The translations under genes were made by a program, and so were the position numbers. Under the pieces are notes generated by a model. It was given only the letters and a program-made list of their open reading frames with translations, did not search any database and was not told the origin of the DNA. From a virus (Duplodnaviria; Heunggongvirae; Uroviricota; Caudoviricetes), in IMG/VR virus record IMGVR_UViG_2541047722_000006: a stretch of DNA of 10,956 bases; one strand, written 5' to 3'. Shown piece by piece: positions 220 through 10,956 of the stretch. Position 1 is the first letter of the stretch. The number at the start of each line of letters is the position of its first letter.

Positions 220-731
220 GCCCTGTTAACACTGCCACTGTTGGGCAACTTCAGAACCACTGTCTCACCGCATTATCTCAAGGCGCAACTGAATTAAATA
301 TCCATATATCAAGTCAGGGAGGGGAAACTGCTGCTGGCTTTACTGCGTATAACTTTCTTAAGTCACTCCCTGTTACCGTTAGAACTCACAACATAAGCAA
401 TGTTGAATCCATAGCTAATATCGTTTTCCTGGCTGGCTCAGAACGTTTCGCAAACCCATTATCAAGATTCCTGTTACATCCTCTATTATGGTGCTTTGCC
501 TCCCCAGCCGCCGACCATGCCAGATTGAGAGAGTACGGGAAATGCCTCGATAACGATCTTGATCGCTTCGTTGAGACGTTCAATATCGACATCGGAACCC
601 ATATTAGGTGGGCATCCCTGATAGCAGACTCGACCATTTTGGATGCTAACAAGGCTCTTGAGCATGGCATAATTAATTCCATAAAAACTGCAAGGCTGGC
701 ATCCAATCAGGCAAACTGGTGGGTTGTTTGA
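220..731 (+). pseudogene. ClpP-like (peptidase S14 fold) serine protease gene, 5' end removed or interrupted by IS629
   Basis: The plus frame is open with no stop from the IS629 junction (220) to TGA at 729-731. The translation (...NIHYSSGGETAAGFTAYNFLKSLPVTVRTHNISNVESIANIVFLAGSERFANPLSRFLLHPLL...IADSTILDANKALEHGIINSIK) aligns by eye with E. coli ClpP ([63 protein letters not shown]...[21 protein letters not shown]). Candidate Ser/His/Asp positions are present. There is no in-frame start between the junction and the TTG at 525, and about 40 or more N-terminal residues expected from ClpP are missing. Confidence 0.55.
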
Positions 732-756
732 TGGGTAAATCATGATTACTCCTTAT

Positions 757-778
757 AAAAAACCCACCTGACGGTGGG
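757..778 (-). terminator. Rho-independent terminator of the 188-aa/YafO-like operon (possibly bidirectional)
   Basis: Hairpin CCCACC-tgac-GGTGGG (763-778) directly after the YafO-like stop codon (780-782); on the minus strand it is followed by TTTTTTAT (762-755). On the plus strand only TTT follows. Confidence 0.55.
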
Positions 779-779
779 T

Positions 780-1229
780 TTAGTCAAACATAGTGTTTCT
801 AAAGTCTCTCGCATACCCTGCTAACACTCTCATTCTATTATGATTGTTAGCAGACATGTGAGCTACAGGATGAAAAAGAGCAATCAATGAATACCTGTTC
901 TCATCAAAAAGATTTTGTGCATAAACGAGAGCGGTATTGGATGTTTTATGCCACTGCAACTTTTGCGGTGTGCTGATATCTGTGCCATTTTTTATTGGCT
1001 CAAATTTATTTTCACCAATTGCTAAATGAAGGTGCATAAGGCCTGCATCTTCAATATCAGGAGGTCGATGATAAGAGGTGTCTCTGCCAAAATAGCTGGG
1101 CAACGTTCCCGTAGACTTGTAGATGATAAAATCATCTACAAGTGTTTGTTTTAAATCAGGAAACTCAACAAAAACCGGGGAGAAAAAATAGTCAAAACTA
1201 TCCTGATTATATTCCACGGTTACTTGCAT
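780..1229 (-). CDS. YafO-family toxin-like protein (type II TA toxin family, ribosome-dependent mRNA interferase), 149 aa
   Basis: ATG at 1229 preceded by GAGGT plus a 5-nt spacer, 8 nt after the stop of the upstream gene. The translation shares the motifs I recall from E. coli YafO: DFIIYKSTGTLPSYFGRD (YafO DFISYKRDGVLPDTFGRD), HLHLA (HIHLA), ALVYAQNLFDE (HLVYCQGAFDE), and a C-terminal AHMSANNHNRMRVLAGYARDFR (HKLARDNNQMHKIGKMAEAFR). AT-rich. Confidence 0.7.
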   Translation of the reverse strand: MQVTVEYNQDSFDYFFSPVFVEFPDLKQTLVDDFIIYKSTGTLPSYFGRDTSYHRPPDIEDAGLMHLHLAIGENKFEPIKNGTDISTPQKLQWHKTSNTALVYAQNLFDENRYSLIALFHPVAHMSANNHNRMRVLAGYARDFRNTMFD

Positions 1230-1237
1230 GTTTTACC

Positions 1238-1804
1238 TCAGTGGAAGTTACCAGAGTGAAACACACGAGTCCCGTGCTCAGCAAGCGCACGCAAACCAGC
1301 CATATCTACGGAACTATCAAAAACAACCGGAACACATGAGCGTTGTTTAATAAGACTATTCAGGTTGGTTACGGCAGATCTGGCATCAGCAACAACGATA
1401 TAGATATCTCTTGCGATCTCTTTAAAATCAGCAGAAGCTTCTTTGAATACCGATTTCATTGCCCCTTCAAGTCCTCTCAATTGATGCTCTATCAATCGAG
1501 ACTTTTCTGGTTCAATGATAGACAACACATTGTCTACATTCTCATCGGTAGCGTTTGCAAGAACACGATAAGCGTATTTCAGCATTCGAGACAATTCTTT
1601 AATCGAAGACACCGCCTCATGAAGCTCATCATTAGCCCGTTCACTGCTGAATGAGGATTGATGGTAAGCGTGCTGAACGTTATCAGTAACAACCACCTCA
1701 CAACTGAACGCAGAAGCTTGCTGTAATAGCAAACCTATTGCGACTCCAGCTTTGGCAGCGTTCAAGCTAAACATTTCATCAATCCCATTAGTCTCATTGC
1801 TCAT
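1238..1804 (-). CDS. Hypothetical 188-aa protein, first gene of the operon with the YafO-like toxin; no family recognised
   Basis: ATG at 1804 is preceded by a perfect AAGGAGG Shine-Dalgarno with a 5-nt spacer. The ORF track's longer 198-aa version starts at a TTG (1834) without a ribosome-binding site. The protein looks mostly helical, with no HTH or catalytic motif I can recognise, and is not YafN/Phd-like. Confidence 0.65.
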   Translation of the reverse strand: MSNETNGIDEMFSLNAAKAGVAIGLLLQQASAFSCEVVVTDNVQHAYHQSSFSSERANDELHEAVSSIKELSRMLKYAYRVLANATDENVDNVLSIIEPEKSRLIEHQLRGLEGAMKSVFKEASADFKEIARDIYIVVADARSAVTNLNSLIKQRSCVPVVFDSSVDMAGLRALAEHGTRVFHSGNFH

Positions 1805-1871
1805 ACAAACCTCCTTCTTATCGGAGATTATCAATAGCTATGCATCCATTGAATACACGCTATGCGCAATA

Positions 1872-1900
1872 AGTTTACGTCACGTGATATCATTATGCAA
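1872..1900 (-). promoter_or_regulatory. Putative sigma70 promoter of the 188-aa/YafO-like operon with an embedded palindromic operator candidate
   Basis: On the minus strand: TTGCAT (1900-1895), 17-nt spacer, TAAACT (1877-1872), about 65 nt upstream of the ATG at 1804. The spacer contains the perfect 8-bp palindrome TCACGTGA (1880-1887). Prediction by eye only. Confidence 0.3.
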
Positions 1901-1979
1901 CCACCGTTCTATCACCGACTAACTTTACTCCCACTCCTATACATCATCTGGTATCCTGCGCAAAACTAAGGAGGTTGGT

Positions 1980-2330
1980 GTGAATGCTCAGTCTGTCATC
2001 ATGGTTTTCCTTGGGCTGATTGTCGCAAAACTATATCCAGACTGGTGGAAAGGGGCATTAGCTACTGTCGCCATCTATTTGCTTTTATCCATCGTTAAGC
2101 GATCACTCGCTGAGACCGTAAATCAAGCAAAACGTTTCTCATTTAAGAGTTTAATAAACTATGTTACTGGGCTTATTTTTTGCCTTTCAATTCTGATCGC
2201 TTCGGCTTTTTTGCCCGTATCAATAGCTAATTTTTTTGGCGCACCATATGAGGTAGGTTATCTATTCTCTGTTTCCTGTCTTGCCATTGCTCTTCTTTAC
2301 CTGTGGACGAGATCAAAGAATAAAAATTAG
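1980..2330 (+). CDS. Small multi-pass inner-membrane protein (116 aa), possible superinfection-exclusion-type moron
   Basis: GTG start at 1980 with a strong AAGGAGG (1968-1974) 5 nt upstream. Three to four hydrophobic helices (SVIMVFLGLIVAKLY, ALATVAIYLLLSIV, LINYVTGLIFCLSILIASAFLPV, VGYLFSVSCLAIALLYLW) and a basic C-terminus (TRSKNKN). AT-rich, convergent with gp16. Confidence 0.6.
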   Translation: MNAQSVIMVFLGLIVAKLYPDWWKGALATVAIYLLLSIVKRSLAETVNQAKRFSFKSLINYVTGLIFCLSILIASAFLPVSIANFFGAPYEVGYLFSVSCLAIALLYLWTRSKNKN

Positions 2331-2347
2331 CCATCCGTGGCTGCCAG

Positions 2348-3494
2348 TTATTGAGCTTCTTTTTGTGATGCCTGTGCGACTCTGGTGAGCGATTGTGTGA
2401 CCGTACTGATCGCTCTGTCATATGCTGTGCTACCTTTTGGCGTATTTGCCAGACGTAACAAGGCATTTCGTATAACAGGGCTTTCGTATGCCTTCGCAGC
2501 TCCTCCTACGACACCAGCAGCAGGAACAACAAACGCAGCCGTTTTTAGCATCCCCGCTAATACTGCTGCGTTTATGATGCCACCACCAACTAACAATCCA
2601 TAAAGCTGCTGACCATTTAAGTTTTGAACGTTCGCTTTTGCCGCGTGTCTTGTATCGTTGAGGTATTTAATAACGCCGTCCAGTTCCTTTCCATGTACGC
2701 CTTTAAAGAAAGTTGCTGATTGCTTCCTGTTCCGGTGTAACGCATTAATAAACTTTTCAACACTAATATTTCCAGACGGATCAGTCGCCTTATCTACAGC
2801 ATTCTGAACTATGGCTGCTCGTGCGTTTTGCCTACCATTGTCATCCAGAAGCCTGTAAAGCTGAGAACGTTCTGATGGGTTTTGGCTAAAAACGAGTTTT
2901 GTTACATCCTCAGGTGTAGCCTTGCCGCTGGCTATTGCCTTTTGAACGCGCGTTCTTCCCATCATGTCATTGAATCTAGCCCATGAGCGATCAACCCTAG
3001 ACATATTGGCAGCTTCTTCTGAGCCTAGTTTTTGGGATACTGCTTTTTTCATATCCGCTGTATATGCCTTGTAGACAATATCGCTGGCTTTCTGGAGCGT
3101 GTCTTTATCAACAGTCTCGTTTGAATTCATGAACCGCTTTCGAAGGTCAGTTCTGTTTTCTCTCGCCAGACGCAGGTCATTGGGTCCGCTGGTGATATCG
3201 TCTTTAAATTGCTGCAAGACTTTTACCGCGGCTCTATCCTGAGATTTGCCCGGGCGGCTTAACACGGCAATCTGATTGTCGATAGCTTTTACCGTGTTTG
3301 AGAGATCGACAGGGGTATCCCCCATAGCGTCAATTATGCGGTTATATCGCTTTCCTGCTGCCTCAATGAATTTTTGTTGCCCTTTAGTCGCAGATTCATA
3401 AAGCTGTTTATCAGAAATGCCACCCAGACCATCGCTAAATGTTCTGACTAAATTTTCTCGTGCTTGTTGTTGATTCAGCCGATTCTTACCGGTT
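2348..3494 (-). pseudogene. P22 gp16-like DNA-ejection (transfer) protein, C-terminal fragment separated from its 5' part by IS629
   Basis: The minus frame is open from the IS629 junction (3494) to TAA at 2350-2348 (checked codon by codon for 3326-3494). It is in frame with the N-terminal fragment once the IS and one copy of the duplication are removed. Position after gp20 matches P22 gene order. Confidence 0.8.
3492..3494. repeat. Target-site duplication (GTT), left copy, of the IS629 insertion in gp16
   Basis: GTT immediately precedes the IS629 terminus TGAACCGCC at 3495; the same triplet follows the other terminus at 4805-4807. Confidence 0.6.
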
Positions 3495-3548
3495 TGAACC
3501 GCCCCGGGAATCCTGGAGACTAAACTTCCTGAGAAAGAGGTAAACAGG

Positions 3549-3875
3549 ATGACTAAAAATACTCGTTTTTCCCCCGAAGTCCGTCAACGGGCAGTCCGTA
3601 TGGTTCTGGAAAGTCAGAGCGAATATGACTCACAATGGGCGACAATTTGTTCCATTGCTCCAAAGATTGGCTGTACGCCGGAGACTCTGCGTGTCTGGGT
3701 TCGCCAGCATGAGCGGGATACCGGGGGCGGTGATGGAGGGCTCACCACCGCTGAACGTCAGCGTCTGAAAGAGCTGGAACGTGAAAATCGTGAACTGCGC
3801 CGCAGTAACGATATCCTTCGCCAGGCTTCCGCTTATTTTGCGAAGGCGGAGTTCGACCGCCTCTGGAAAAAATGA
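3549..3875 (+). CDS. IS629 transposase OrfA (108 aa, HTH DNA-binding part)
   Basis: ATG at 3549 preceded by AGAGGT. The protein has the leucine-zipper-like C-terminus ([29 protein letters not shown]) typical of IS3-family OrfA. Confidence 0.9.
3867..3873 (+). promoter_or_regulatory. Putative programmed -1 ribosomal frameshift site (A6 run) for the OrfAB fusion transposase
   Basis: AAAAAA at 3867-3872 lies at the end of orfA, just before its TGA (3873-3875); orfB begins in the -1 frame at 3872. IS3-family elements are known to make a fused OrfAB transposase by -1 slippage. Confidence 0.5.
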
Positions 3876-4762
3876 TGCCACTGCTGGATAAGCTGCGTGA
3901 GCAGTACGGGGTCGGACCGCTATGCAGCGAACTGCATATTGCCCCGTCAACGTATTACCACTGTCAGCAACAGCGACATCATCCGGATAAACGCAGTGCC
4001 CGTGCGCAGCGCGATGACTGGCTGAAGAAAGAGATACAGCGCGTATACGATGAAAATCACAAGGTATACGGTGTGCGTAAAGTCTGGCGTCAGTTGTTAC
4101 GGGAAGGTATCAGAGTGGCCAGATGCACTGTGGCACGTCTCATGGCGGTTATGGGACTTGCCGGTGTTCTCCGGGGTAAAAAGGTCCGTACGACCATCAG
4201 CCGGAAAGCCGTTGCCGCAGGCGACCGCGTAAACCGTCAGTTCGTGGCAGAACGACCTGACCAGCTGTGGGTGGCTGATTTTACTTACGTCAGCACATGG
4301 CGGGGCTTCGTCTATGTGGCGTTCATCATTGATGTGTTTGCCGGATACATCGTGGGGTGGCGGGTCTCATCGTCCATGGAAACGACATTCGTGCTGGATG
4401 CACTGGAGCAGGCGTTATGGGCCCGTCGACCGTCCGGCACGGTCCATCACAGTGATAAAGGTTCTCAGTATGTATCGCTGGCCTACACACAGCGGCTTAA
4501 GGAAGCCGGATTACTGGCATCAACAGGAAGTACAGGCGACTCGTATGACAACGCGATGGCGGAGAGCATCAATGGTCTTTACAAAGCGGAGGTAATACAC
4601 CGTAAGAGCTGGAAAAACCGTGCAGAAGTGGAACTGGCCACACTCACGTGGGTGGACTGGTATAACAATCGACGATTGCTGGAAAGGCTGGGCCATACTC
4701 CTCCGGCAGAAGCAGAAAAAGCTTATTATGCTTCCATCGGAAACGATGATCTGGCAGCCTGA
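3872..4762 (+). CDS. IS629 transposase OrfB (DDE/RNase H-fold catalytic part, 296 aa); expressed mainly as an OrfAB fusion spanning 3549-4762
   Basis: ORF in the -1 frame relative to orfA, overlapping it by 4 nt. Contains motifs of an IS3-family integrase core (WVADFTYV...HHSDKGSQY...[15 protein letters not shown]). Confidence 0.9.
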
Positions 4763-4804
4763 GTTCACAGATAAAACACTCTCCAGGAAACCCGGGGCGG
4801 TTCA

Positions 4805-4807
4805 GTT
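4805..4807. repeat. Target-site duplication (GTT), right copy, of the IS629 insertion in gp16
   Basis: GTT directly after the IS629 right terminus at 4804, matching 3492-3494. Confidence 0.6.
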
Positions 4808-5676
4808 CCAAAAAAAGGAACTCTTTCGCCTAATGTCTGAGCCTGACTCTGCATAAAGGTTTTATCTTTCAGCGTGTCACTGGTCATTAACGGCAGGTTT
4901 CTTTCCGACGCAAAATCGACAGCAGCCTTTGCTTCCGGTGACATCTCACCGCGAACAGCCCTGGAAACCGCACTAACTGTATTTTCCAGCCCCTTGCCAA
5001 CACCACCAATGCCAGCAGAAATTACCGTTTGTGCAGGATCAATATCTTCTCCGCCAGCAAGGCTGGTGCCACCCTGTAGTGCTAAATCTGTAGCAGCTGA
5101 TTTCCCTATGGCACCAAGCACCGTTCCAGCCCTGCCCGCTGGTGTGAACGCTAACGCATTAGCAAGAAACGAAGTCAGGTCTTGCGGTGATAAACCTGGC
5201 TTGTTCAGGGCATAATCACCGGATGGCAGGGAAACGATAGTGTTACCCTTCTCATCCTGCCTTAATTTCGCCCCCATACTCTGAAGAATCTTTTCCTGAG
5301 ACGCGTCGGAGCCGAAAAGTTGAGACCATCCAGCCTTCAGGGCATCCATGCTTAGTGAGTTCAACTCAGGGGCAGCCCCAACATTTTGCAGTCTCTCCAT
5401 TTCTGGTGTCATTCGGCTTTCACCGGTAACGGCATCGCGCATTGCAGCACCTAAAACAGCCCCTTGCTCAGCAGAGCGATCTAGTCCTTCCTTCTGCTGA
5501 GTGGCAAGCTGTGCATATCCTGATGCAAGTGAGTTGTCTGCTGGCGATTGCTGAACACCTTGTTGTGTTGGCGCTGACTGACCAGCAAAATACTCATCAA
5601 TGGCGGACCCAATATCTTCCGTGCTCGTACCATCAGGAAAGGTAAATGTCTTACCATTTGCAGTTACTTTCATCAT
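4805..5676 (-). pseudogene. P22 gp16-like DNA-ejection (transfer) protein, N-terminal fragment truncated by IS629
   Basis: ATG at 5676 overlaps the gp20 stop (ATGA). The N-terminus [33 protein letters not shown] matches my memory of P22 gp16. The present ORF (4765-5676) reads 12 codons into IS629 (EPPRVSWRVFYL) before stopping; native sequence ends at 4805. Confidence 0.8.
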
Positions 5677-7124
5677 TCCACCGTAAATTGAATGCCTGAT
5701 TTTGACGTGTAGCTACCTCCTGCTGATTGCTGAGTAGCTGGCTGTTGCCTTGATGATTTCTTCCCGCCATTACCAACATTAACGTTATATTGCTGGTTGT
5801 AATTGTCGGTATATTGCTGAATGTCGCGCATTGATTGTTGCAGCGCTTCAGGACTTGAGAAATCAGGCTTTGGCATACCCTGAAAATACCTATTGGCCTC
5901 TGCTTCGGTGTTGATGCCAGATGCCCCCATATCTCGGGCTGCTGCAATCCCCTGATTTTGCATTTTGCCCATGATTCGCTGTGCAGCGTTGTATAGCCTC
6001 CTCTCCTCAACACCAGATGCCCTGCTACGAATATCTGCACCAAGAGCAAAAGAACCTGAAGAACCTGTAATACCTGTCATGAAGCCAAGATCGTCAATTG
6101 ATGCGCCAGAAATTGCATCAAGATCTTTCTTCATTTCGTAATTCTGTGCATTAGCTGCCGATGTAGCCGGAGCAGCAATAGAACTGGCGGGGACGCGAAT
6201 CATATTGCCCTCGTTGTCTATTCCTTCGTAGAACGCATTAGCACCAGCGCCGTGAAGCTTCCTACCAACCGTTACCGTTCTGCCATCTGCCAGTTGCACA
6301 ACATTCTCCCCGCCAGCATCAGGACGACCTCGAACACGAAGATATGTCTTTTGTTGCTCTGGAGACAGGCTGTTGAAATATTGATATTCTTTAACAGATG
6401 CAGGAACAGCACCTCCAGCAGTGCGCAGGGAGTTTTCACGGCTAACAGCAATGCTTTGCGCCTTTAAACCTTCCCCAGCTTTATTGCTGCGAATCGTCTC
6501 TGCCAACTTGCCACGCTCAATATCCCGACCTTCCATTTGATCTTTGATATCGAAATACTTCTCATGACCGAGAGAAAATAGTGCCAGATTACCTGCGAAG
6601 TGCTGGAAGCCCTGCGGGTCATTAACCTGCATTTCCGCAATAGTTTCTGGAGGGATACCTAAACGACGCATCTCCTTTTCGTTATCCATCATGAACCTGC
6701 CAAATGCACCCGGACCAAGCGACGAAGCGACCTGAGCCTTAAGCGCCAGATTGCCAAAATCATCCCGCTGGGCGTCATCGACATACCCCATGCCTTTACG
6801 GACTTCCTCAAACTCTTCGGGGAATGCTGTAATAAGATTACGCATCTGCTCCCTGTCGCCGGACGCATAAGCATCCGCATAACCTTTCTGGAATGCCGCT
6901 TTACGCTCCTGCTTTTGCTGCTGCTTATAAATATCAGCAACTCCAGCCAGACCACGAAGACCTGTCAGAGCAACGTTATTTGCACCTGATCGAGCCAGTT
7001 CATTGTTTTCGCGGATCAGACCAAGCGTTGCGTTAATGTCGCTTGCCTTTGGCGCATTCTCATTTTGCGTACCGATGCCAGCCAGAAACCCACCAGAATT
7101 AATACCCTGTTGCCACGTAGCCAT
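5673..7124 (-). CDS. P22 gp20-like DNA-ejection (transfer) protein, 483 aa
   Basis: ATG at 7124 with GGGGT 5 nt upstream. Size (P22 gp20 is about 471 aa), position between gp7 and gp16, and a Q/N/G-rich low-complexity C-terminus are typical of ejection proteins. Confidence 0.85.
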
Positions 7125-7134
7125 TGATTACCCC

Positions 7135-7827
7135 TTAAAACAACGAGCCAAGCAGACCAAGACCAGCACCGATACCAGCACCCCACGGAGTTGATAGCTC
7201 GAGAGCACTGGCTATGCCACCACCCAAAAGCGCACCGGATGCAGCACCACTAACACCCTGCTGCAATGCTGACGGTCGGTTGGCGTTTGCCGCTGCAAGA
7301 GCCGCGCTTTGCTGTGAAATCTGACTCATGTTGTTGGCATATGTTTGCCCGGCGTTTGCCTGCCCCTGAAGAGCGCCAAGACCGATATTTGCCAGGTTGT
7401 TGTAATTGTTCATTTGTCCAGATAGCCATTGCTGACCAAGCGTTGGTGCGATTGTTGCTAACTGATTACTGGTTGCGGTGGAACCCAATCCACCTGTTGC
7501 TTCCGCTGCCGCCAGACTCTGATAGCGAGCCTGACCTGCAAGGTCTTTATACTGCTGAGAGTTGTAATACTGGTTAAGTGCCTGACCTTGCCCTTCCAGA
7601 GACGATAAGTTCTCAAGGCTGCCGACATACTTCCCAGCCAGAGGAGTAAACAGCTTCAGGTTGTTCATGATGGTGTTGAACTGCTGATTTTGCAGGTCTG
7701 CGGCATACTTCTGAGCTTCTGCTGCATACTTTGCGCTTTTATCAGAACTGCCACCTTTCCCGCCTTTTTCAGGGTAATAAGGTTCCTCGCCGCGCAGTTT
7801 TCTGCCCAGCGTAAATGCATATAACAT
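7135..7827 (-). CDS. P22 gp7-like DNA-ejection (transfer) protein, 230 aa
   Basis: ATG at 7827 with GGGAGA 5 nt upstream. The N-terminus MLYAFTLGRKLRGEEPYYPEKGGKGG matches my memory of P22 gp7 (229 aa); the C-terminus is glycine-rich and hydrophobic. Confidence 0.85.
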   Translation of the reverse strand: MLYAFTLGRKLRGEEPYYPEKGGKGGSSDKSAKYAAEAQKYAADLQNQQFNTIMNNLKLFTPLAGKYVGSLENLSSLEGQGQALNQYYNSQQYKDLAGQARYQSLAAAEATGGLGSTATSNQLATIAPTLGQQWLSGQMNNYNNLANIGLGALQGQANAGQTYANNMSQISQQSAALAAANANRPSALQQGVSGAASGALLGGGIASALELSTPWGAGIGAGLGLLGSLF

Positions 7828-7829
7828 GG

Positions 7830-8285
7830 CTATCTCCCGTGATTCAGGAAGTCGATTAGTTCTTCGCGTGTGGCGCTGTAAAACGTCACGTCATCCACGC
7901 CTTTGAAGTATTTCTTGATGGTTCCTACACGCTTAAGGCCAATCATTGCGCAGTACATCTGCCCGTGGCGGAATTTGCGTGCAGCAAATGATGTGACGCA
8001 CTGAACGGTGGTGTTGGTCAGAATGTATCGCCAGAACGCCAGCCCTATTTCCTTGCTGAAGCCGCGAATCTCTGGCAGGTACATGGCGTGGCAATCGAAT
8101 GTAAGCGGCTGAATCTCCTGATAGTAAACAATGCCGCCAAACTGACCGTGCACGTTCACCTCAAAGTAACGGCAATCAGGTTTGTAGTCGTATCCATCAC
8201 CGTTGTTGCTCCCGGCGATGATGTCAGGGTGATTTCCTACTGCTTCGATCAGGTCGATGTTTCGCGTTGGTTTGAATGTAATCAT
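7830..8285 (-). CDS. P22 gp14-like virion/head assembly protein, 151 aa
   Basis: ATG at 8285 overlaps the gp26 stop (TGATG). Assigned mainly by synteny between the tail needle and gp7; I do not recall the P22 gp14 sequence. Confidence 0.7.
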   Translation of the reverse strand: MITFKPTRNIDLIEAVGNHPDIIAGSNNGDGYDYKPDCRYFEVNVHGQFGGIVYYQEIQPLTFDCHAMYLPEIRGFSKEIGLAFWRYILTNTTVQCVTSFAARKFRHGQMYCAMIGLKRVGTIKKYFKGVDDVTFYSATREELIDFLNHGR

Positions 8286-8986
8286 CAGTCAATCAGCCCA
8301 TGTAATCTAAGTGCTGTTTCAAGCGCCAGAATACGCTGCCGCGCCTGCTCCAAACCTGTAGCGATAGCTGCGACTTCGGATTGTGTGTACGTAGTGCCGA
8401 CCGTGTATGACTGGTTAGCGTTGAATGAGCCAAGAAGTGGTGTGCCTGTGGCCGCTGTCCATCCGGTCTGCCTTGCTCCAACGACCTGAATTCCATCAAC
8501 TGAATATGATGTTTTTACATCCAGCGGTGACGCAAGAGACTGCGATTCTGTTACGGTTTTCGATACGTAATCACTCTTAATGTCAGATATATCGCTTTCT
8601 ACGCCATCCAGTCTTTGGTCAACAGTGACCAGATGCGCCTGAATATCGATAACCTCATCCAGCAAGTAATCAACATCGCTACGCAGTACAACTATCTTCC
8701 CTTCGGCGGTTGTTAACCTGACCTCAAGGAGATTTATCGCTTTTGTGTTTGCGGTGATTCTTGCATCGTGGTCAGCCAGTTCGACATCCTGTTCATCGTT
8801 TTTCACCTGAGCATCGTAAGCGCCCTGACCAGCCTGATTTGCTTTCCCGGCAATTGCGCCGACATCAGCCCCCTGATTAATGACATACAGCAGGTAAGAC
8901 TGGCTGAATATATTGCGTGGAAGGATTGATGTATCGAGCCGCGTCGCCTGCACAATAACAGGGGTGTTGAGATTCGAATCAGCCAT
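8285..8986 (-). CDS. Tail needle protein (P22 gp26-like), 233 aa
   Basis: Start taken as the ATG at 8986, which overlaps the gp10 stop (TAATG). From there the protein begins [73 protein letters not shown], close to the P22 gp26 N-terminus as I recall it, and ends ...LRLHGLID. The longer ORF-track version starts at a GTG (9088) inside gp10. Confidence 0.85.
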
Positions 8987-10404
8987 TACTCGATCCTTAT
9001 CTGGCAGCCAGACAGAGTGACAGGTGACTTCGTGATAACGCGCAATTTGAAGCCGACATTTTTCCTGATGCGCCCGACTCGCTTCCACAAAACGCGTTTG
9101 TCGTAAACAAACGGTTCATTCTGCTCAATCATCTGCTCACGACCGTAATTGATGCCGTCAGTGGTTGCAGAGAGAAAAAGGCGGTCGGCGTACTGCGCAA
9201 CGCCAGTTGAAGATTCAACTTCAAGGTCGAAAACTCTGGCGTTATCCGCTTTGAACAGAGGAGTAAACAGCAGATGCTCCTGTTGCTTGTCGTACTGGCT
9301 GCTGATGTCGAATTGCAATTTCCCGGTCACGGACTCCAGCTTATCGCCGCACGTTATCTGATTGCCTTCGTAAATGAAGTCGATAGCGCGGTACACATCG
9401 TCATACAGACCTGTTTTCAGTACACACCATTGCGGAGCATTGGCGCTTGAAGATGCGTCGTATACGAGGACATGGCGCGGAAGATGGATAATCAGCAGCT
9501 CATGCGCATCAAATCGCAGAGACTCCATCACACCATCAGCCAGTTCATCAGCAGTGTAGGAGCGAAGAATTTTCTCAATGCTCGCGCTGGCGATTGGTGA
9601 CACCTGCCCGGAACCGATGATGTATACAGACGGCGCACCTGTTGCCGGATTGCTGATGAACGCATAGGAATCAGCGAATGGCGTTTTGCAATAGGTTCCG
9701 GCGATGCCTTTTTGCACCATCAGTGATGGCTGTGCGACATACAAAGCAGCACCAACGGTGGTTGCGCCAGTCAGGGAGAAATATTCAATAGTCGATGAAC
9801 CAAAGCAGACGATGAAGTCTCGCCATGTCCCGATACCGATGATGCCGTCCGGCTGCGATTCTGCGCGATATTGTGCACTGTATCGGTCAGGGTGCGATTC
9901 GTCTTCAAGGTCAGTGATAAACCATGAATCAGTTCCGTCTTTTGACCACGCATAACGCCCACGTAAGCGAGTAATGTCGCGAACTGAACCTAACTCATAC
10001 TGCGTGAATCCACTGTCTGTAGGCCAGTTTGAGACGGTTTTAACCGTGCCATCATAACGATACTCGACCAGTTGACCATTAACGCCTACAGCCTGTGATG
10101 TTCGACCATGCGCCATTGATACGCGACCACTTCCGGCGACGTCACCGACTTCGCTTTCTCCTTTGTACAGCTTGCCGCCACACACGCGATAAACAGCACT
10201 CTGCGCCATGTTGTACTCGACGCCGCGCGATATACCATTCACATCAGAACGTTTGGCAATGCCCGGGAATGAGCGAAGATATCCGCTGCTGTTCAGGATT
10301 TCTTTGGGCGTAGCCAACATATTCACTGGCAGATAGTCGATATAGTCGGCGTTTCGAAAGTCTTTGCCGACACCTTTCATAAGCGGAAGTTGCTGAATCG
10401 GCAT
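8986..10404 (-). CDS. P22 gp10-like head-completion / packaged-DNA stabilisation protein, 472 aa
   Basis: ATG at 10404 with GAGGTG 5 nt upstream. The N-terminus [49 protein letters not shown] matches my memory of P22 gp10, and the length is the same (472 aa). Confidence 0.9.
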
Positions 10405-10413
10405 TTATTCACC

Positions 10414-10861
10414 TCACGTACTCGGATCATCTTTCTCGATGTAAAACCGATTCCACGTAAACGCGCTTTTGTTACCACTACCGCGAGGCATGTCATTTCG
10501 CCGCTCAAGTGGTGGTATTTTGGTTAAAGCGATACAGATTGTCTGATATGCACTGTCAGCAGCGGTAAGGAGAGCGTCTGACGGCTGAATGACGTTATCC
10601 ATGCACACTTGCACAGCGAGTTTCAAAGCGACGCCATCATTTGCCCATGCAGGGATGCCTGAATCATCGTCAGGTAACGGCATGATGCCGTTTTCTGTAT
10701 CAGCAAACTGATACCCAAGCTCGATACCTTTCGCCTGCCATGCTGCCATCATGTCTTCGAGGTCATTAATGGCATCTTCAATTGCCTGAGGGTCAGCATC
10801 TGTCAACGTGGCATTGGAATACAGCCCGGCTTTTCGTAAAGCCTTTAGAACGAGATCACCC
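10414..10861 (-). pseudogene. P22 gp4-like head-completion / packaged-DNA stabilisation protein, 5' end interrupted by IS629
   Basis: The minus frame is open from the IS629 junction (10861) to TGA at 10416-10414. The translation from the junction, GDLVLKALRKAGLYSNATLTDADPQAIEDAINDLEDMMAAWQ, resembles the P22 gp4 N-terminal region (MQIKTKGDLVRAALRKLG... as I recall it), so only a few codons and the start codon are missing. The TTG at 10806 used by the ORF track is not a credible start. Confidence 0.7.
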
Positions 10862-10956
10862 TGAACCGCCCCGGGAATCCTGGAGACTAAACTTCCTGAG
10901 AAAGAGGTAAACAGGATGACTAAAAATACTCGTTTTTCCCCCGAAGTCCGTCAACG
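10862..10956 (+). mobile_element. IS629 (IS3 family), partial copy running off the window end; left terminal repeat at 10862
   Basis: 10862-10956 is identical to the first 95 bp of the complete copy (TGAACCGCCCCGGGAATCCTGGAGACTAAACTTCCTGAGAAAGAGGTAAACAGGATGACTAAAAATACTCG...). Confidence 0.9.
10916..10956 (+). CDS. IS629 transposase OrfA, first 13 codons (continues beyond window end)
   Basis: ATG at 10916 with the same AGAGGT ribosome-binding site as the complete copy; translation [13 protein letters not shown]. Confidence 0.8.
   Translation, partial: MTKNTRFSPEVRQ

Follow-up and report, generated by a model that had tools for sequence, protein, structure and literature searches.

What gene has been cut at the left edge of the viral sequence IMGVR_UViG_2541047722_000006, and what would its intact product have done for the phage that carried it? 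We analysed the full 10,956-nucleotide stretch of this IMG/VR record (hereafter the window), in which a plus-strand reading frame ending at position 731 emerges directly from an insertion sequence (IS) of the IS629 type. The prophage is P22-like, as found in K1-type extraintestinal and avian pathogenic Escherichia coli (ExPEC/APEC) strains such as S88 and APEC O1. We hold with high confidence that the frame is the remnant of a ClpP-like gene and that this copy has been inactivated. Taking identity and mode of action together, we consider it probable that the remnant derives from a natively truncated ClpP paralogue acting in the manner of ClpP1 from Pseudomonas plecoglossicida (PpClpP1) and disrupted here by IS629; the mode of action, drawn by analogy, is much the less certain part. 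The literature searched contained no paper that treats this ClpP-like family as a prophage or accessory gene, or that describes a ClpP of P22-like phages.

The remnant frame and its insertion junction

The features at the left edge of the window are the following:
1-219: IS629-type element (IS3 family), partial because the window begins inside it, with the beginning of orfA on the minus strand; its terminal inverted repeat ends at 219
220-222: GCC, one copy of a 3-bp target-site duplication (gene nucleotides 26-28), from the comparison of strain FY26 with S88
220-731, plus strand: remnant of the ClpP-like gene, codons 10-178 plus the stop; pseudogene

The plus frame terminates at a TGA (729-731) and is open upstream to a TAG at 192-194, within the IS. 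Its 169 residues past the junction match the Pfam family CLP_protease (PF00574) with an E-value of 3.3e-11 and 43.8 bits (cut-off 20.2), over profile positions 40-180 of 182. A sequence-only reading of this DNA had proposed exactly such a ClpP-family frame starting at the IS629 junction, and the profile match, together with the PDB and Foldseek matches described below, bears it out: the translation falls into a peptidase family and not elsewhere. That reading would have been refuted had the two antisense open reading frames (ORFs; 386-706 and 486-743), and not this frame, possessed homologues; neither has a Pfam match. When the frame is compared with a Pectobacterium copy (80% identical), 83 of the 132 nucleotide differences fall at third codon positions of the plus frame, giving 68 synonymous versus 36 non-synonymous codon changes, a pattern found in no other frame. 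The substitution pattern and the Pfam match, with no match for the antisense ORFs, therefore identify the plus frame as the gene, and the antisense candidates were ruled out.

The intact gene can be read in S88, where a 537-nucleotide coding sequence encodes a 178-residue protein (WP_000903306) annotated as “ATP-dependent Clp protease proteolytic subunit”. From window position 220 onward, IS-free matches occur in many complete E. coli genomes, including S88, APEC O1 and ATCC 11775; of 5426 such genomes, about 125-135 carry the gene.

The left IS copy has a terminal inverted repeat that ends ...GGGGCGGTTCA at position 219, also written out as ...CCCGGGGCGGTTCA, and it is 100% identical to a complete 1310-bp copy in FY26 (L002 4910-6219). 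The Prokaryotic Genome Annotation Pipeline (PGAP) labels the IS copy “IS3 family transposase, programmed frameshift”; we take it to be IS629 from its features, not from a database match. Element size, ORFs, imperfect 25-nucleotide inverted repeats and 3-bp duplications (GCC and GTT) all fit IS629, for which target duplications of 3-4 bp have been described (PMC3271280).

The junction itself was resolved by comparing genomes with and without the element. FY26 reads ...TTATGCC, then the IS, then GCCCTGTT..., and the IS-free S88 site reads TTATGCCCTGTT; over a longer span, FY26 has ...ATGCTGCACACAATTCATTTCTTATGCC, IS629, GCCCTGTTAAC..., for which the S88 counterpart is ...TTATGCCCTGTTAAC... In the sister genomes with this junction, the insertion point lies after gene nucleotide 28, flanked by the GCC duplication, and only nine codons (MLHTIHFLC) are detached. 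The sequence-only reading had asked for the sequence beyond the partial IS copy to be inspected for the missing 5' part and a target-site duplication, and for a comparison with related genomes that lack the IS; relatives supply both, the intact gene in S88 and the 3-bp duplication in the pair FY26 and S88. The exact junction of the window is common to three complete genomes, FY26, BEN5202 and NCTC11151, each of which has mnt plus 28 nucleotides and the matching GCC on the far side of the IS. In these sister genomes the event is a simple insertion, with no rearrangement.

Two further IS copies lie in the window:
3495-4804: complete IS629 copy of 1310 bp, with orfA (108 residues), orfB (296 residues) and a 3-bp duplication GTT
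10862-10956: third, partial IS629 copy at the right window edge

The inverted repeats of the complete copy are 25 nucleotides long and imperfect (92% complementary), and the left IS copy has the opposite orientation to the others. With three copies in the window and the far side of the left one lying beyond its end, one might suppose that the junction arose by an IS-mediated rearrangement, a deletion or inversion between IS629 copies in which the 5' end of the gene was lost. The sequence-only reading had left the choice between insertion and rearrangement undecided. Window positions 220-3494 plus 4805-10861 are, however, colinear with the IS-free S88 prophage; the matched S88 span, 9330 bp, is exactly the length of 220-10861 once the middle IS and its duplication are subtracted. 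On the visible side this speaks against inversion or deletion mediated by an IS, and the three complete genomes with the identical junction retain mnt, the 28 nucleotides and GCC. We therefore regard rearrangement as improbable and favour a simple insertion.

The consequence for the gene is severe. Between the IS-internal stop (192-194) and position 525 the frame contains no ATG, GTG or TTG; its first in-frame start is the TTG at 525 (codon 111), downstream of both Ser72 and His95. The window copy is a pseudogene because no start precedes codon 111, and PGAP marks the identical remnant in FY26 as an incomplete pseudogene. The insertion has moved the Shine-Dalgarno sequence and the first nine codons, start codon included, away from the remainder and would leave no possibility of an active protease. 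The absence of the N-terminal portion expected from ClpP, which the sequence-only reading had put down to IS629, is thus explained only in part: the gene is indeed cut by the element, but the loss amounts to nine codons and the remaining absence is native to the intact 178-residue protein. What the window holds is a ClpP-family gene, known from automatic annotation, in a copy inactivated by an IS; the decaying prophage around it carries at least three IS629 insertions.

Other phage genes of the window are also interrupted. The complete IS copy divides an ejection gene of the P22 gp16 family into two parts, 2348-3494 and 4805-5676, and the partial copy interrupts, at the right edge, the gene lying upstream of the gp10 homologue. 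The window extends from one IS copy to another; the prophage is defective. The three IS positions taken together are reproduced neither in FY26 nor in E. coli E10.

Several other copies of the ClpP-like gene are disrupted as well. E10 (L124, NZ_CP104533) carries a diverged IS629-like copy (2715-4026) in the opposite orientation, 1 bp from the window site and with the duplication CCC, not GCC. There, an ATG inside the IS end opens a 189-residue hybrid ORF that ends in residues 10-178; in the PGAP annotation it figures as an intact Clp protease (WP_261175599). Such an independent insertion at the same spot suggests either a hot spot or selection against the gene. Three viral contigs show further independent disruptions. 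In L087 (4147-5882) an insertion of 1195 bp has duplicated 4 bp of the gene, nucleotides 185-188, and its size and duplication suggest IS5; in L099 (4198-4569) it is 5' truncated at nucleotide 166, and in L084 (1403-1938) it has a 1-nucleotide indel.

Fold, catalytic residues and known ClpP-type proteins

Three positions of the remnant are central to its assignment:
408-410, plus strand: codon of Ser72, the equivalent of the catalytic serine; invariant, aligned with PpClpP1 Ser73
477-479, plus strand: codon of His95, the equivalent of the catalytic histidine; invariant, aligned with PpClpP1 His96
627-632, plus strand: codons of Asp145 and Ser146, placed by alignment A1 with E. coli ClpP and by HMMER alignment to 9UXT and Mycobacterium tuberculosis ClpP1

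Conservation was judged on alignments of 29-42 relatives (A1-A3; family of L001:5976-6512). Ser72, in the motif NVESIAN, and His95, in LLHPL, are invariant in all of these members and align with S97 and H122 of E. coli ClpP, so that both residues named by the sequence-only reading as candidate catalytic positions are upheld. The third is not: the Asp in IADSTIL (D145, window 627-629) occupies a variable column, and the column of the catalytic Asp of E. coli ClpP corresponds to Ser146 here, to Ser or Ala in relatives and to Pro in PpClpP1. The alignments hold no catalytic Asp that would complete the triad. The SxGG region is invariant across the relatives. Alignments A1-A3 show two further traits of the family: the handle helix starts with an invariant D107-H108 pair, and the C-terminus carries a nearly invariant NWWV tail, which canonical ClpP lacks. 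An alternative charge relay, occupation of a pocket or contacts between rings are conceivable roles for these elements.

The N-terminus is equally telling. The protein begins at about residue 24 of mature E. coli ClpP, so that about 23 residues are natively absent, and its native start, MLHT.HF, is conserved in relatives; the short length is therefore native to the family.

A sequence search of the PDB placed 9UXT first, with an E-value of 1.6e-35 over residues 3-175, and canonical ClpPs at about 1e-7. The AlphaFold2 model, built on a protein 97% identical to the ClpP-like protein (P0001), reached a predicted local distance difference test score (pLDDT) of 93.4 and shows the ClpP alpha/beta fold with its handle helix. 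Foldseek searches with this model again returned 9UXT first, at a template modelling (TM) score of 0.93, and the ClpPs of E. coli, Staphylococcus aureus and Bacillus subtilis at about 0.83.

The structure 9UXT is that of PpClpP1, a protein of 183 residues; its native sequence has neither the N-terminal axial loop nor the helix, retains Ser73 and His96 and has Pro in place of the catalytic Asp (PMC12900304). It forms a homotetradecamer with an axial pore of 42.7 Å, displays a low peptidase activity that depends on Ser and His, does not bind ClpX and, with the canonical ClpP2, assembles into a heterotetradecamer of higher activity (PMC12900304). The prophage protein resembles it in length (178 residues versus 183), in its native N-terminal lack, in the equivalent Ser and His and in the missing catalytic Asp, and the two sequences are 38-40% identical. 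They differ at the third triad position, Pro in PpClpP1 and Ser146 in the prophage protein. They differ in setting as well: work on PpClpP1 has treated it as a drug target and as a paralogue encoded on the chromosome, whereas the present gene belongs to a prophage and is coupled in translation to mnt. The tetradecamer, the wide pore, the lack of ClpX binding and the heterocomplex are properties shown for PpClpP1 only.

With E. coli ClpP (family S14, PF00574) the protein shares the fold, the SxGG oxyanion region and the register of Ser and His, but the identity is about 20%, and the N-terminal axial loop that gates the E. coli pore and contacts ClpX and ClpA is absent from the prophage protein. 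The equivalog models of ClpP score far below their cut-offs (TIGR00493, 19.2 versus 308.6 bits; PRK00277, 31.3 versus 249 bits).

Phages encode ClpP-fold enzymes of their own, and a head-maturation (prohead) protease, active or as a relic, has to be weighed at this point. The best PHROG match is phrog_94, head maturation protease, at 7.3e-21; the NCBIfam model NF045542 (Clp_rel_HeadMat) matches at 5.2e-13; and in phage phiv205-1 the gene is annotated as a head maturation protease. These enzymes are, like the present protein, phage-encoded, of ClpP fold and devoid of the N-terminus that docks AAA+ partners. Both scores nevertheless remain far below family level (49.3 bits versus a cut-off of 120 for NF045542), and the ClpP-like gene is a lone gene without any fused scaffold or capsid domain. 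None of the loci examined has it next to portal, scaffold or capsid genes or in their orientation; it lies outside the head modules and antiparallel to them. P22-type heads, moreover, assemble without proteolysis, and a P22-like phage needs no prohead protease. A role in head maturation is accordingly very unlikely. The protein is a ClpP-fold member of the S14 family, of the PpClpP1 type; it is no orthologue of ClpP, nor is it a prohead protease.

Position behind mnt and beside a YafO-type module

The S88 prophage provides the gene order without interruption. The tailspike gene, ant, a small ORF and arc lie on one strand; mnt and the ClpP-like gene lie on the other, followed by a convergent YafO-family toxin gene with its 188-residue partner, a gene for a 109-residue membrane-type protein, the ejection genes (gp16, gp20 and gp7 families) and the equivalents of gp14, gp26 and gp10. 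This arrangement resembles the immI region of P22 in gene 16, in the sieA position, in the presence of a gene behind mnt, in mnt itself and in the divergent arc-ant-tailspike block. In P22, mnt is followed by orf59a, a terminator and then sieA, which has its own promoter and lies next to gene 16. The differences concern two slots: that of orf59a, a 59-residue ORF in P22, is taken by the ClpP-like gene, and that of sieA by an unrelated 109-residue membrane-type protein together with the inserted YafO module. The sequence-only reading had placed the ClpP-like gene outside the P22 morphogenetic module, as a possible accessory gene, and its location in the immI region directly behind an Mnt-family gene agrees with this; “moron” of the immI region, outside the virion-assembly module, is a reasonable description.

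In S88, the ATG of the ClpP-like gene overlaps the TAA of the upstream gene, which encodes an 82-residue Arc/Mnt-family protein (...GAAAAATAATGCTG...), and an AAGGA lies 9 nucleotides upstream of the ATG. The same abutting order of mnt and clpP is found in Pectobacterium prophages, in phage phiv205-1 and in the PhiR12 phages. Co-occurrence was counted in the 46 IMG/VR loci that hold a ClpP-like copy of at least 94% identity. Nearly all have this copy abutting an Mnt homologue; two loci instead show a gap of 270-555 nucleotides, another has a 5'-truncated copy and yet another a copy split by an insertion. The Mnt allele itself ranges from 36 to 100% identity to S88 Mnt across these loci.

In P22, mnt and then orf59a are read on the Pmnt transcript, orf59a holding the position of the ClpP-like gene. 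Because the latter occupies this second-cistron slot behind mnt, expression in the lysogen may be expected from the P22 precedent, and the ClpP-like protein would be made, together with Mnt, from the Pmnt maintenance transcript.

Downstream, the ClpP-like gene faces a toxin gene across a short intergenic segment:
760-781, between the convergent genes: GC-rich hairpin with a 9-bp stem (AAACCCACC-TGAC-GGTGGGTTT)
780-1229, minus strand: YafO-family toxin gene (Pfam YafO_toxin, 3.4e-22), a neighbour outside the ClpP-like unit
1238-1804 (to 1834 with a TTG start), minus strand: 188-residue partner gene upstream of YafO, of no named family

The stop of the ClpP-like gene at 731 and the end of the YafO-family gene at 780 converge on the hairpin, an arrangement that had been read correctly from the sequence. 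Folding energies of the hairpin are -17.6 and -16.3 kcal/mol (z about -2.7 and -2.6). With a T-run behind it on the minus strand, it is probably a shared two-way terminator; a consensus terminator scan missed it, its T-run being absorbed into the stem.

The proximity of the two units had raised the possibility of a dedicated link, in which the protease would serve the adjacent YafO-type module by degrading the 188-residue putative antitoxin. Degradation of type II antitoxins is commonly the work of Lon or Clp proteases, and the two units are adjacent, convergent and share one hairpin. Yet YafO and its partner are present in only five of the 46 close loci, and they are absent in Pectobacterium, phiv205-1, PhiR12 and all distant homologues examined; in phiv205-1, other genes lie downstream of the ClpP-like gene. 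The ClpP-like gene moreover belongs to the mnt transcription unit and not to the toxin operon. Since the protease gene travels with mnt and not with the toxin module, the link is unsupported, and we give it hardly any credence; the low co-occurrence and the separate transcription units indicate two cassettes that recombine independently.

The neighbours deserve mention in their own right. The YafO partner (188 or 198 residues, depending on the start) is much larger than YafN-type antitoxins, has no Pfam or NCBIfam match and matches only phrog_8416 (function unknown); in its 198-residue form it has a weak ZorA-like match in PADLOC (E-value 0.004). It may represent a new type of antitoxin for YafO toxins. 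Farther on, window 2001-2330 on the plus strand (ORF from a GTG at 1980) encodes a hydrophobic protein of 109 or 116 residues, read in the same direction as mnt and without a family match. At the sieA position next to gene 16, it could be a superinfection-exclusion analogue.

Distribution, proposed role and meaning of the family

Relatives of the gene extend well beyond P22-like prophages. At least 124 IMG/VR loci hold a relative, and among 1.84 billion representative proteins 451 clusters match at an E-value up to 1e-10, mostly of 180-190 residues. Homologues with 40-60% identity occur singly in prophages of other types: Klebsiella and other lambdoid prophages have the gene flanked by Rz/LysC and the small terminase gene, Proteus has it between N and the early-left genes erf/ssb, and in Chromobacterium it separates tail-fibre from lysis genes. 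In the 72 loci whose copy is less than 90% identical, both neighbouring ORFs were on the opposite strand in 43 and both on the same strand in 4, as tallied from a crude ORF call.

Three settings stand out. In PhiR12_5 (L018, 2525-4537), a siphovirus, a cassette of ant, a small ORF, an mnt-like gene and a ClpP-like copy 98% identical to ours lies between the lambda-type tail genes L and K, which implies that the immI module moves, with its protease gene, between unrelated virion types. On a Mu-like IMG/VR contig (L119, 5995-6546), an opposite-strand copy 50% identical to PpClpP1 has tape-measure genes on one side and DNA-circulation genes on the other; the “ClpP1” subfamily, as published, may itself have come from phages. 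In Massilia and Telluria (L028-L038), homologues of about 41% identity show conserved chromosomal synteny across the genus, so that the family also has a vertically inherited, apparently non-prophage branch; the ORF calls in these GC-rich loci are noisy and were used solely to show that the flanks are common to them.

For the intact prophage protein, the nearest model of action is PpClpP1. By analogy, it most likely forms a wide-pore tetradecamer of low peptidase activity that would need no ATPase, and it could join host ClpP in hetero-tetradecamers and thereby alter the output of ClpXP and ClpAP; the altered proteolysis would benefit the prophage or its lysogen.

A number of observations weigh against this reading. 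With the canonical catalytic Asp missing, the protein may have little activity or none. Its best matches in PHROG and NCBIfam are head-maturation proteases, and the protein may descend from a phage protease. Hetero-oligomers with E. coli ClpP would be an extrapolation from a Pseudomonas protein of 38-40% identity, and both the activity and the expression of the prophage protein are inferred. Transcription from Pmnt would follow the pattern of P22, and a scan of the mnt-clpP surroundings in S88 for consensus promoters and terminators gave nothing above shuffled background. As the window ends within the IS, its mnt-proximal junction is presumed to be that of FY26, BEN5202 and NCTC11151. Finally, the repeated independent disruptions suggest that the gene is dispensable.

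A more specific role can be envisaged in phage-phage conflict, where the intact protein might act from the lysogen as a superinfection-exclusion or defence protease that breaks down proteins of incoming phages, for instance ejection proteins, antirepressors or replication initiators, either by itself through the open pore or by retuning host ClpXP. The locations of the gene speak for such a role: the mnt operon beside the place of sieA in P22, the stretch downstream of the lysis genes and the interval between N and the recombination genes are classic sites of lysogenic conversion or exclusion. The gene moreover stands alone, is usually antiparallel to the late genes and has spread among unrelated prophage types. 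On the other side, no defence-protein model of PADLOC-DB 2.0 matched the protease at E-values up to 0.1, nor did one match the YafO-family toxin or the membrane-type protein; the gene is repeatedly disrupted with no obvious replacement, and a location does not by itself disclose a function. Conflict between phages is the most attractive specific form of the proposed mechanism, but we consider it less likely than not. We give similar odds to a wider reading, in which the N-terminally truncated, Asp-less ClpP-like proteins of roughly 180 residues, PpClpP1 included, would largely form a mobile family of single-gene prophage accessory genes expressed in lysogens, wired in P22-like and some lambda-like phages directly to the Mnt maintenance repressor; as ATPase-independent proteases, or by hijacking host ClpP, they would shield the lysogen from other phages or stabilise lysogeny. 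The interest of the family goes beyond this pseudogene: a ClpP-fold protein lacking the N-terminus that docks ClpX or ClpA is carried singly by P22-like, lambdoid, Mu-like and other prophages. Should it be active in lysogens, prophages would have in it a means of altering host proteolysis or of excluding rival phages, and the recently solved PpClpP1 would be recast from a paralogue into a gene of phage origin.

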